Positions 34,755-40,086 of a stretch of 64,000 bases of DNA are shown here, one piece after another. The notes under the pieces were generated by a model. The model made no database searches and was not told where the DNA came from. It saw nothing but the letters and a program-made list of their open reading frames with translations. The DNA is taken from NCBI GenBank assembly GCA_964016885.1, contig OZ024740.1:2170001-2234000 (forward strand). The letters are read 5' to 3'. Both the position numbers and the translations under genes were made by a program. Positions within the stretch are counted from its first letter, which is position 1. Every line of letters starts with the position of its first letter. This DNA comes from Eledone cirrhosa (taxonomy: Eukaryota).

Positions 34755-34994
34755 TCCATATATATATATATATATATATATATATATATATATATATATA
34801 TATATATATATATATATATATATATATATATATATATATATATATATATATATATATATATATATATATATATATATATATATATATATGTGAATGAAGT
34901 AATTCCATCGGAAAAGTCCAGGAAAAAAGAGTGCTCTATGTAAGCAACAGAGCTTAATTATTATTATTATGTAATAAACAACATAAGGCAATTA

Positions 34995-35054
34995 TTCCAT
35001 TTACCAGTGGTTTCTTAAAAGCAAAAGGTTTTGCTTTCAATCCTCAGAATGAAA
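34995..35054 (-). ncRNA. Type I hammerhead ribozyme (outer, left arm; GUA cleavage triplet)
   Basis: TTTCATT-CTGAGGA-TTGAAAGCAAAA cc TTTTGCTTTTAA-GAAA-CCAcTGG-TA-AATGGAA: intact core with stems I, II and III. Confidence 0.8.
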
Positions 35055-36441
35055 AATCCTGGTTTGTTTATTGAATATGGATTCTAAAAACGAAAATGCA
35101 ATCTATATGAAAGTGAGGCTGGAAAAGGGAGAAGGAAAGGAAAAATAAAATAAAATAAAACTACACATGCAAACACACACAAAAAAACCCAAAAACATAC
35201 TTACACACACACACATATATACACATATAATTTGCACGCATACACATATACACATACACATACATATACATATATATATATATATATATATATATATACA
35301 TACACATACATACACATATATATATATAAAGAGCGTACACCTACACACACATACACATATATATACACACATATACACATACATATATTCATACATACAC
35401 ACGCACACACACACATATACACACACACACACATATACATACACATGTACATATCCATACATATATATATATATATATATATATATATACACATACATAT
35501 ACACACATATACACATATACATACACACACACACACATGTGTGTGTACAAGCCTACACATACACACACACATATATATACACACACATATACATACATTC
35601 ACACAAACATACAACGTACATACATACATACACATACATGAATGCACTCCACTACATATTAACACACGCAAATAAATATAAGAAAAAAATATATAAATAA
35701 TATTAACAAATATTTGACAGCGATACATGCCCCAGCTAACAGGACAGACACGCGTGGTAAGTAATACACACATAAGCGCATATACATACGTTCGAAATAG
35801 TAAACACATACACACACTCTCACACATAAATATACATATACAAATACATAAACACGTACATACACATACATACGCAAACACGTACACGTATACAATATAA
35901 ACACACACATGTATATGTAATTATATACACACACACACACATATACATATATATATATATATATATATATATATATATATACATACAAAATATAAAAATA
36001 TAAACGCACACACACATATAAATACGTAAACACACATATACATACATAGCTAAACAATTATACACATGCAAATACGTATATATCAAAAGAACGCACAACC
36101 AAATACAAACACACACACATATATACACACACACACACCCACACACAAACCCACACATACATAAAAATAAATAAAAACACACGCAACATATACATACATA
36201 CACATACATATACATATATACATATATACATATACATATATATATATACACATACATATACACAAATATATATATATATATATATATATACACACATACA
36301 CGTACACATACACACATGCATACACATACACACACACATATACATGTGTGTATGTGTAAAGCTCAGTATTAGATAAGACAAATGAACCTTACATAAACGT
36401 ATATATAGTAGTAAAGTAATAAAGCCATACAAGGCAATTAA

Positions 36442-36500
36442 TCCATTCACCAGAGGTTTCTTAAAAGCAAAAAAAGTTTCCTTCAATCTTCAGAATGAAA
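36442..36500 (-). ncRNA. Type I hammerhead motif (inner, left arm; non-canonical GUG triplet)
   Basis: TTTCATT-CTGAAGA-ttgaaggaaac..ttgcttttaa-GAAA-CctctgG-TG-AATGGA. Confidence 0.6.
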
Positions 36501-36892
36501 TATACAAATATATACACACATACAGACACGCACACACACATATATATATATACATATATATATATATATGTACATATATATATATATATATATACAGACA
36601 TATATACATACACACATATATACACACACATACATATACATACATACATACACATATATATACATACACAAACATACACGTACGCATATACATATATACA
36701 CACAAAAATACATACACATACACATAGGTATGTGAAGGGCAAAACAAAAAGAATATATGGGGTGGGGGGCCTAGAGGAGGTAAAAATATAAAGGGAGGTA
36801 AGGGAGAAAAAAATATTTTTTAAAAACAAGAGTACAGAAGGTAGAAGCAGCAAAATAAAAGCCGTAGCAAAAGTAAAGAGCAGAGAAGGAGT

Positions 36893-37461
36893 TCAAGGCG
36901 GTTGATTTATCGTAGGAGTGTCAATCCAGTTACAGATCAGATGCGATTTCAGATGAGGACAGCATCTGAAGATCTCAGTCTTAGAGTTAAGGCAAGCGGA
37001 AGTGTCTCTCAAGTTTAGCAAAATCCTATACTTTTCTGTGGTACACAAAGAACAATTCTTTGTGCCCCTTTGGTACTCCCTCGAATGGTCTAATATAGAC
37101 CAATCAATAGAGTACGGGATATTACTATCCTTGAGATCCCATACCTTACTTGCGAGGGCCGTTGATGTTCGTTTATCTGAGTGTTTAAAAGAAGCGACAT
37201 GTGAGTAAAATCTGGTTTTAAACCTGTCCTGGGTCATACCGACATATCGCTCGCTTCTGGCTGGCTGGTTGTTGATAACTGGCGTTATTTTAGCCTCATA
37301 AACGACAGATTTTGTTTTACATTTACCCTGCAATGGGCATTCATCCGGCTTCCTGCAACTGCATCCTGGATTTATCCTCGTACGGTTTGAACTGGTGATT
37401 TTGGATTTCATGGATGGACAACAAGAGTAGCTGATCTTAACTACATTCCTATTAAAAATCT
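36893..37461 (-). mobile_element. Neptune-type Penelope-like element, C-terminal linker plus GIY-YIG endonuclease (left arm)
   Basis: IFNRNVVKISYSC, CSCRKPDECPLQGKC, VVYEA..YVGMT..FKTRFYSH, TALASKVW, CSLCTTEK, LNSKTE, CPH: typical PLE endonuclease with a Cys-rich linker. RT absent (5'-truncated). Confidence 0.9.
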
Positions 37462-38019
37462 AGGAATGTAGTTAAGATCAGCTACTCTTGTTGTCCATCC
37501 ATGAAATCCAAAATCACCAGTTCAAACCGTACGAGGATAAATCCAGGATGCAGTTGCAGGAAGCCGGATGAATGCCCATTGCAGGGTAAATGTAAAACAA
37601 AATCTGTCGTTTATGAGGCTAAAATAACGCCAGTTATCAACAACCAGCCAGCCAGAAGCGAGCGATATGTCGGTATGACCCAGGACAGGTTTAAAACCAG
37701 ATTTTACTCACATGTCGCTTCTTTTAAACACTCAGATAAACGAACATCAACGGCCCTCGCAAGTAAGGTATGGGATCTCAAGGATAGTAATATCCCGTAC
37801 TCTATTGATTGGTCTATATTAGACCATTCGAGGGAGTACCAAAGGGGCACAAAGAATTGTTCTTTGTGTACCACAGAAAAGTATAGGATTTTGCTAAACT
37901 TGAGAGACACTTCCGCTTGCCTTAACTCTAAGACTGAGATCTTCAGATGCTGTCCTCATCTGAAATCGCATCTGATCTGTAACTGGATTGACACTCCTAC
38001 GATAAATCAACCGCCTTGA
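37461..38019 (+). mobile_element. Neptune-type Penelope-like element GIY-YIG fragment (right arm)
   Basis: Identical protein to the left arm. Confidence 0.9.
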
Positions 38020-38411
38020 ACTCCTTCTCTGCTCTTTACTTTTGCTACGGCTTTTATTTTGCTGCTTCTACCTTCTGTACTCTTGTTTTTAAAAAATATT
38101 TTTTTCTCCCTTACCTCCCTTTATATTTTTACCTCCTCTAGGCCCCCCACCCCATATATTCTTTTTGTTTTGCCCTTCACATACCTATGTGTATGTGTAT
38201 GTATTTTTGTGTGTATATATGTATATGCGTACGTGTATGTTTGTGTATGTATATATATGTGTACGTATGTATGTATATGTATGTGTGTGTATATATGTGT
38301 GTATGTATATATGTCTGTATATATATATATATATATATGTACATATATATATATATATGTATATATATATATGTGTGTGTGCGTGTCTGTATGTGTGTAT
38401 ATATTTGTATA

Positions 38412-38470
38412 TTTCATTCTGAAGATTGAAGGAAACTTTTTTTGCTTTTAAGAAACCTCTGGTGAATGGA
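38412..38470 (+). ncRNA. Type I hammerhead motif (inner, right arm; GUG triplet)
   Basis: Mirror of 36442-36500; CTGAAGA at 38419-38425, GAAA at 38452-38455. Confidence 0.6.
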
Positions 38471-39869
38471 TTAATTGCCTTGTATGGCTTTATTACTTTA
38501 CTACTATATATACGTTTATGTAAGGTTCATTTGTCTTATCTAATACTGAGCTTTACACATACACACATGTATATGTGTGTGTGTATGTGTATGCATGTGT
38601 GTATGTGTACGTGTATGTGTGTATATATATATATATATATATATATTTGTGTATATGTATGTGTATATATATATATGTATATGTATATATGTATATATGT
38701 ATATGTATGTGTATGTATGTATATGTTGCGTGTGTTTTTATTTATTTTTATGTATGTGTGGGTTTGTGTGTGGGTGTGTGTGTGTGTATATATGTGTGTG
38801 TGTTTGTATTTGGTTGTGCGTTCTTTTGATATATACGTATTTGCATGTGTATAATTGTTTAGCTATGTATGTATATGTGTGTTTACGTATTTATATGTGT
38901 GTGTGCGTTTATATTTTTATATTTTGTATGTATATATATATATATATATATATATATATATATATGTATATGTGTGTGTGTGTGTATATAATTACATATA
39001 CATGTGTGTGTTTATATTGTATACGTGTACGTGTTTGCGTATGTATGTGTATGTACGTGTTTATGTATTTGTATATGTATATTTATGTGTGAGAGTGTGT
39101 GTATGTGTTTACTATTTCGAACGTATGTATATGCGCTTATGTGTGTATTACTTACCACGCGTGTCTGTCCTGTTAGCTGGGGCATGTATCGCTGTCAAAT
39201 ATTTGTTAATATTATTTATATATTTTTTTCTTATATTTATTTGCGTGTGTTAATATGTAGTGGAGTGCATTCATGTATGTGTATGTATGTATGTACGTTG
39301 TATGTTTGTGTGAATGTATGTATATGTGTGTGTATATATATGTGTGTGTGTATGTGTAGGCTTGTACACACACATGTGTGTGTGTGTGTATGTATATGTG
39401 TATATGTGTGTATATGTATGTGTATATATATATATATATATATATATATATGTATGGATATGTACATGTGTATGTATATGTGTGTGTGTGTGTATATGTG
39501 TGTGTGTGTGTGTGCGTGTGTATGTATGAATATATGTATGTGTATATGTGTGTATATATATGTGTATGTGTGTGTAGGTGTACGCTCTTTATATATATAT
39601 ATGTGTATGTATGTGTATGTATATATATATATATATATATATATATATATATATGTATATGTATGTGTATGTGTATATGTGTATGCGTGCAAATTATATG
39701 TGTATATATGTGTGTGTGTGTAAGTATGTTTTTGGGTTTTTTTGTGTGTGTTTGCATGTGTAGTTTTATTTTATTTTATTTTTCCTTTCCTTCTCCCTTT
39801 TCCAGCCTCACTTTCATATAGATTGCATTTTCGTTTTTAGAATCCATATTCAATAAACAAACCAGGATT

Positions 39870-39929
39870 TTTCATTCTGAGGATTGAAAGCAAAACCTTT
39901 TGCTTTTAAGAAACCACTGGTAAATGGAA
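39870..39929 (+). ncRNA. Type I hammerhead ribozyme (outer, right arm; predicted cleavage after A39922)
   Basis: CTGAGGA 39877-39883, stem II 39884-39909, GAAA 39910-39913, stem III CCA-c-TGG, GTA, stem I TTTCATT/AATGGAA. Confidence 0.8.
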
Positions 39930-40086
39930 TAATTGCCTTATGTTGTTTATTACATAATAATAATATATATATATATATATATATATATATATATATATAT
40001 ATATATATATATATATATGGTAAGGAACCAGGTGGACCATAACGCACCAAAGTACTCAATACTTGGGGTAGTAGAGTGGGTAATAG

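Follow-up and report, generated by a model that had tools for sequence, protein, structure and literature searches.

We asked what produced a 5-kb palindrome of Penelope-like element (PLE) sequence in a 64,000-nt stretch of Eledone cirrhosa DNA (contig OZ024740.1, positions 2,170,001 to 2,234,000; hereafter the window, in whose coordinates all positions are given), and why each of its arms carries two motifs that resemble hammerhead ribozymes. Our answer, which we consider probable, is that a 5'-truncated PLE of the Hydra clade recently inserted head to head at a (TA)n tract within a host intron, and that it was copied from an RNA that had read through an older, decayed terminal repeat and ~1.3 kb of probably captured host DNA. 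On this reading, what has been published on Penelope biology accounts for most of the locus, which does not represent a new circular-RNA system.

The palindrome runs from 34890 to ~39965 and lies between two (TA)n tracts (34758..34889 and 39963..40018). Its left arm (34890..37460, minus strand) is the 5'-truncated copy with the long, tail-bearing end, and its right arm (37461..39965, plus strand) is the inverted copy with the short end. Inverted alignments paired 35336-37451 with 37461-39576 at 99% identity and 34959-35328 with 39596-39965 at 98% identity; aligned arm against arm, the two gave 2500 matches, a single substitution and two 6-nt microsatellite indels. At the centre, 9 nt are unpaired (37452..37460). 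They are in frame with the minus-strand copy of the element, where they encode the I-F-N of a conserved IFNRN motif. The two ends differ: the left arm reaches 112 nt beyond the outer cut site and the right arm 43 nt, so that a 69-nt tail (34890..34958, minus strand) is found on the left arm only. Each arm reads, in order, an endonuclease C-terminus (188 amino acids, aa), a short 3' untranslated region (UTR), a microsatellite, a first (inner) motif, a spacer and a second (outer) motif. The cores of the two motifs are 1446 nt apart in the left arm, and the unit from cut site to cut site is 1458 nt long in the right arm.

A first-pass annotation of this DNA had described a 5-kb palindrome with two hammerhead-like motifs per arm, in the same order and with a CTGAAGA core in the inner motif and a CTGAGGA core in the outer one. 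The arm alignment and our scan with a hammerhead descriptor bore this out, and the head-to-head arms agree with its view that PLEs form inverted, 5'-truncated copies. Because the arms are copies of each other, the double-hammerhead arrangement counts once and not twice. We concluded that the palindrome is a recent insertion, a nearly unmutated record of one event, with a known Penelope architecture that includes a long spacer before the terminal repeat. A mini-palindrome occupies 40020-40208 in the same (TA)n tract, with arms of ~60 nt, a 1-nt centre and an extension of ~65 nt confined to the left arm. It lacks a hammerhead core, and a related 36-nt piece lies at 40689-40724; its similar one-sided tail suggests that it is the 3' end of another PLE family.

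Judged by its sequence, the outer motif (39870..39929, plus strand, in the right arm; 34995..35054, minus strand, in the left) is well supported as a hammerhead and fits the pattern of the clade. It has the CUGANGA/GAAA core, three stems and NUH site of a type I hammerhead. In the right arm the CTGAGGA core begins at 39877, stem II is 11-12 bp long, and the cleavage triplet is GUA with A17 at 39922, after which the cut is predicted (after 35002 in the left arm). Stem III is self-complementary but for one central mismatch, which upholds the earlier description of a type I hammerhead with a self-complementary stem III. The descriptor matched at exactly four places in the window, namely the two motifs of each arm, and at none in 60 dinucleotide-shuffled sequences. 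We also trained a covariance model on hammerheads from related loci, using 44 of 48 distinct sequences and leaving out two that lay at contig edges, a long outlier and a near-duplicate; the outer motif was its top-ranked match (19.6 bits, E = 0.003). Two further matches of the model, at 9369-9448 and 23008-23068 (18.5 and 17.3 bits), failed the hammerhead descriptor and were rejected. The search against Rfam that the first-pass annotation had proposed returned no hammerhead family, either with the whole window (E ≤ 1) or with 39800-39965 (E ≤ 10); the Rfam microRNA matches that did appear were below their gathering scores and tracked palindromes and microsatellites, and we discarded them. Upstream of the outer hammerhead is a putative intron of 86 nt (39720..39805, plus strand) with a GTAAGT donor, a pyrimidine tract and a CAG acceptor. 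It ends 72 nt before the outer core and recalls the 75-bp intron published for the pseudo-long terminal repeat (pLTR) of Penelope.

The inner motif (38412..38471, plus strand; left copy 36441..36500, minus strand) looks, from sequence comparison, like a decayed and weaker relative of the outer one. In the right arm its CTGAAGA core is at 38419 and its triplet is GUG at 38462-38464, with G17 at 38464; the left copy likewise has G17. Together with its 3' flank, the inner motif is 83% identical to the outer one over 88 nt (E = 2e-20). Ten differences fall within the 60-nt motif, of which three break pairs, one keeps a pair as G-U and none is two-sided. The GUG site departs from NUH, and G17 occurred in none of the 48 distinct relatives although the scan had allowed it. 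Stem III is self-complementary save at its centre in all 48 relatives, a result that arises partly by construction since the scan required two stem III pairs; the inner stem III palindrome is broken. In the covariance model the inner motif scored 14.8 bits (E = 0.1), behind the two matches that failed the descriptor. The 11 invariant bases of the core are all intact, as is a 7-bp stem II, but a core would survive by chance with P ~0.11, so its survival is no evidence of selection. The earlier expectation of poor cleavage at this site is in keeping both with the absence of G17 among relatives and with a published test in which GUG mutants showed no cleavage. It had also been proposed that the ribozyme-bearing terminal segment is duplicated in tandem. 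This holds for the motif and ~33 nt behind the cut, which is all that the inner and outer copies share; the segments upstream are not detectably homologous, as 830 of 2000 shuffles scored as high as the 3' UTR did against the segment before the outer hammerhead, and extension of the homology into the tail was likewise not significant.

To which clade the element belongs was decided by the open 188-aa fragment of an open reading frame (ORF) at 36893..37459 (minus strand), which comprises a CxCx5C linker and a GIY-YIG-type endonuclease and has no reverse transcriptase (RT). Its identity to the C-terminal parts of longer, RT-bearing proteins is 39-42%; among the eight homologues of more than 600 aa that were retrieved, DK[TS] was present in seven and RWK in three. 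The linker reads CSCRKPDEC, and its C33, C35 and C41 are invariant in the homologue alignment. Further on, C136-x2-C139 and C167-x-H169 provide a CxxC and a CxH that flank the conserved E142 and N158, and the stretch that joins the two halves of the GIY-YIG core is free of cysteines. Compared by eye with the published PLE alignment, the fragment resembles the Hydra sequences and not the Neptune ones. Craig et al. (2021, PMC8557442) diagnose the Hydra clade by CxCx5C, the lack of CCHH, CxxC and CxH around E and N, and (TA)n targets; the (TA)n on both flanks of the palindrome and the canonical outer hammerhead near its 3' end also accord with this clade. By its sequence features the element is thus a Hydra-clade PLE. 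The earlier recognition of a PLE is supported by the endonuclease fragment and its homologues. Its assignment to a Neptune family is contradicted by the same features, and the two Neptune traits, a CCHH motif and a CX2-5CxxC linker, are both absent. A Pfam search with the fragment matched no family, so the assignment rests on the homologues and the published alignment and not on Pfam. Searches for a close protein relative gave a best identity of 52%, with one match, at 42%, when restricted to proteins of near-equal length; six cluster look-ups led to single-member unnamed clusters, and no relative was present among 230 pattern matches in viral contigs.

Published Hydra-clade elements share with the window element, besides these protein traits, the (TA)n target and a 3' hammerhead with a 9-nt self-complementary stem III (PMC8557442). 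The octopus element Hydra-1_Obim has the same stem III arms, although by protein (judged by eye) it is a different family, and Penelope-13_HM likewise has a 5'-truncated inverted copy attached. The window element differs from the published Hydra elements in its extra, decayed hammerhead and in the U-A pair that closes stem II. It differs also in length, since in the Hydra relatives described a few hundred bases separate the endonuclease from the terminal hammerhead, as against ~1.9 kb here.

Our own sample of relatives showed the same displacement. The metagenome scan gave 79 loci, drawn from the best 80 of 215 confirmed matches. In 46 of them the first downstream hammerhead lay 54-528 nt (median 146) behind the endonuclease. 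Two downstream hammerheads were found in none of the 79; where at least 1900 nt of 3' flank was available (15 loci), 12 had one hammerhead and none had two. A stricter scan found a hammerhead in 25 of the 79, and again no doubles. In the window, the inner motif is 436 nt and the outer one 1882 nt from the endonuclease. Because 436 nt is within the usual range of the relatives, we concluded that the inner motif is at the ancestral position and that the outer one has been displaced; the earlier remark that the terminal ribozyme is unusually distant is therefore well founded (1882 nt vs 54-528 nt). One related locus, L013, has at 163-1305 two diverged sister-family hammerheads, 1142 nt apart and on either side of a truncated ORF; behind each come one hairpin and a (CATA)n run. 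The locus is a natural partial tandem of unlike terminal repeats.

Between the two motifs is a TG/TA-rich spacer (38500..39719, plus strand) with a few unique islands; 57% of 38500-39869 is in simple runs. This spacer is likely to be captured host DNA, an origin that would have precedent in Pen1_Av of the rotifer Adineta vaga, where 0.9-1.5 kb of captured host DNA precedes the 3' pLTR (Arkhipova et al. 2013, PMC3846280). According to the passages available from that paper, Pen1_Av and Pen2a_Av also share with our element the head-to-head inversion, the palindromic junction and the one-sided tail. They belong to other families, their tail is 31 bp as against 69 nt here, and those passages do not mention an old hammerhead before the spacer.

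The unequal ends of the palindrome led to a conserved structure in the relatives. Within 200 nt upstream of 21 ORF starts of related loci, GAGCAC[TA] occurred twice in 18, once in one and not at all in two, against an expectation of ~0.02 per 200 nt. Paired copies are 58-70 nt apart, each is preceded by GCTC, and both lie between the hammerhead and the start codon. The window has the first of these hairpins at 34931..34953 (minus strand), built of GCTC, a 3-bp upper stem, a 2-nt bulge and GAGCAC. When 30 of the 33 distinct sequences (three with a wrong pattern start were dropped) were aligned with that of the window, 99% of the cells in the three upper pairs were paired, with 30 two-sided changes, a result reached in 0 of 500 shuffles; registers slid along the hairpin gave 22-59% paired. 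The four basal pairs are invariant because of how the sequences were selected. The support comes from 29 loci in 19 protein clusters at 70% identity. In the 16 full copies, hairpin 1 starts 42-57 nt past the cut and hairpin 2 starts 43-57 nt past the first GAGCAC.

The ends of insertions appear to track these hairpins. Among truncated ends, 13 meet a simple repeat 27-62 nt past the cut, and seven copies with one hairpin do so at 100-120 nt. Of nine alignments of ends within the same family, four stop within 4 nt of the hairpin start (2-4 nt before it). In the window, the right arm ends 40-43 nt past the cut, falling ~5 nt short of the site of hairpin 1; the left arm ends at 112 nt, which is 47 nt beyond the start of GAGCAC and matches the point at which full-length relatives begin hairpin 2. 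Conservation and position together make the hairpin pair a likely cis signal for reverse transcription. More tentatively, as a proposal that we judge about as open to doubt as to belief and lean slightly against, the tandem hairpins, conserved ~65 nt apart, may position a dimeric RT, with one start a few bases upstream of each hairpin and both starts used in a single insertion, one per target end. Our searches found no description of the hairpin pair in the literature covered, which included the main text of PMC8557442 and the readable supplements of PMC11167929 and excluded most subscription papers, Repbase, figures and one GenBank file.

A comparable system is Poseidon PAc of Anolis (Frangieh et al. 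2024, PMC11167929). There, two internal RT start sites delimit the tail, uncut RNA is the main substrate, both target strands are cut and extended, the protein is predicted to be a dimer, and the hammerhead is dispensable for insertion in vitro. The PAc start sites lie inside the ORF at an AC-rich stem-loop, whereas the ends of the Hydra relatives, as read from genomic copies, would place them in the 5' UTR before a repeated hairpin. The formation of the tail and of inverted repeats in PLEs is named as an open question in PMC8557442. If the hairpin model is true, it would explain both the Penelope tail and asymmetric palindromes, and it would allow host DNA of any kind to be carried along, as here, provided that it lies upstream of a terminal repeat with the hairpins; a defined hairpin makes the question testable with the existing in vitro assay.

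We propose the following history. An element whose 3' end was normal would have come to lie ~1.3 kb upstream of a second, intact terminal repeat. Read-through RNA would have been primed behind that second repeat and copied through both hammerhead sites uncut, and the inner repeat would have decayed until it no longer cut. The element protein would have bound the two hairpins behind the outer hammerhead, with RT starting a few bases upstream of each to give a long and a short end. The two target ends would have been joined to the two RT starts, and the centre would have been closed by fold-back or by a template switch with the 9-nt loop. The copy, truncated inside the ORF, would have entered as an inverted pair whose two ends are unequal, one long and one short. 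Processing of the 5' end of the element mRNA would fall to the outer hammerhead, either dimeric or assisted by the protein.

Several observations weigh against parts of this history. The relatives share only 32-43% identity and were taken from short-read metagenome assemblies, whose contigs break at microsatellites; long, repeat-rich 3' regions would therefore be hidden, and the relatives cannot show the habit of the family in the window. That family is known here from one locus, so the spacer may have been captured at one donor locus or may be a fixed family trait. The U-A closing pair of the outer stem II was found in none of the 48 relatives, and the active fold of the outer motif differs from its minimum-energy fold. 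The signal for a decayed hairpin behind the inner motif is no more than suggestive (952 of 5000 shuffles). In hairpin 2, the upper stem shows no covariation (13 of 28 cells; 2662 of 10000 shuffles), three of the 13 'short' ends (L021, L041 and L053) run on through hairpin 1, and the remaining five of the nine end alignments comprise offsets of -12 and -24 nt, two contig ends and one poor match.

Other explanations assign the inner motif a function or a separate origin. The first-pass annotation had allowed for a role as dimer partner, and the inner motif might be the cleavage-proof catalytic partner in an asymmetric cis dimer, cutting the outer GUA through a swap between stems I and III so that the transcript is cut once, at its end. 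Short-stem-III hammerheads are published to act as dimers, and the inner motif keeps 11 of 11 core bases and a 7-bp stem II; a mixed stem III duplex would have -7.0 kcal/mol against -8.2 for outer with outer, and for the outer 3' arm, the inner 5' arm is as good a partner as the outer 5' arm (-2.8). We nevertheless regard such a dimer as unlikely, given that the intact core is not significant (P ~0.11), that no compensatory change accompanies the breaks in distal stem II and in the stem III palindrome, that the partners are separated by 1.46 kb with self-pairing repeats, and that the arrangement was seen in 0 of 79 related loci. Quite unlikely, too, is a nested short insertion, in which the inner motif would be the 90-130-nt 3' end of a sister-family copy within the microsatellite-rich 3' UTR of an element that itself has a long 3' region reaching to the outer hammerhead. 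The homology does begin abruptly at stem I and fade ~33 nt past the cut, near the position of a short end, where a short TA run follows; Hydra elements are published to target (TA)n, and very short truncated copies and sister-family tandems occur, as in L013. This explanation leaves a 1.9-kb 3' region unaccounted for, when relatives have 54-528 nt and the published Hydra consensuses are 1.1-3.0 kb in all, and the inner motif is already within the normal positional range.

The first-pass annotation had favored a retrozyme-like unit, with both hammerheads cutting to release a 1.46-kb linear or circular RNA. As in the non-LTR animal retrozymes (Cervera and de la Pena 2020, PMC7229834; Li et al. 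2026 preprint), two same-strand type I hammerheads flank a non-coding, AT-rich stretch, and animal retrozymes derive from Penelope terminal repeats. The unit also folds to -476 kcal/mol (z = -9.5 against dinucleotide shuffles). This fold is accounted for by simple repeats: it fades when 40-nt blocks are shuffled (-457 ± 9), G-U makes up a third of its pairs, and a host segment with no relation to the unit comes to -478. Two cuts are needed for a retrozyme-type circle, and with GUG at the inner site such a circle is unlikely. Published non-LTR retrozymes are defined as tandem repeat units, each with a complete hammerhead, and their unit sizes in animals are given as 170-400 nt, or 51-972 bp. 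The unit here is 1458 nt long, is attached to an ORF remnant and is not tandemly repeated, only 88 nt being common to both motifs, and read-through transcripts would be double-stranded. We consider release of such an RNA very unlikely. Least probable of all is an assembly artefact from fold-back reads, to which the 99.96% identity of the arms apart from the two microsatellite indels might point (a figure taken from the assembly sequence). The symmetry stops at the element ends and does not reach the flanks, the ends differ by 69 nt at positions that match conserved hairpins, and a neighboring, unrelated mini-palindrome has the same one-sided tail. We therefore prefer the insertion of a read-through copy of a Hydra-clade PLE.

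That insertion lies in an intron of ~20.7 kb (33760..54442, minus strand) of a PTPLA/HACD-family gene. Four exons were located by translation at 25698-54564 on the minus strand, spread over 29 kb of repeat-rich introns, and Pfam matched PF04387 (PTPLA) on one exon near 30.1 kb. Whichever strand is read through, the antisense arm would be transcribed ahead of the sense arm, and the ribozymes at this locus would then be buried in ~2.5 kb of double-stranded RNA. The insertion would put that length of near-perfect double-stranded RNA into the host pre-mRNA. One island in the spacer (39156-39191, minus strand; mirrored on the plus strand of the left arm) has an acceptor, a 36-nt putative exon and a GTAAGT donor. 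Its strand is opposite to that of the element, and the right-arm copy faces in the direction of the host gene; judged by eye, the exon would bring a stop codon into the host frame if spliced in.

Elsewhere in the window, an inverted pair of SINE-like sequences (short interspersed nuclear elements) at 15211-15745 is 99% identical and surrounds a TA-rich centre with short CCCGG-type units. Two inverted copies of a non-LTR element, L1/Tx1-like by eye and ~89% identical, occupy 58146-63923 and are ~1 kb apart at their closest. At 1550-6900, a repeat of ~5 kb with triplet period has a strong A/C skew on the plus strand. Lastly, a diverged minisatellite at 54830-55240 repeats, in its minus-strand translation, a GGGWCASED-like unit with stops.

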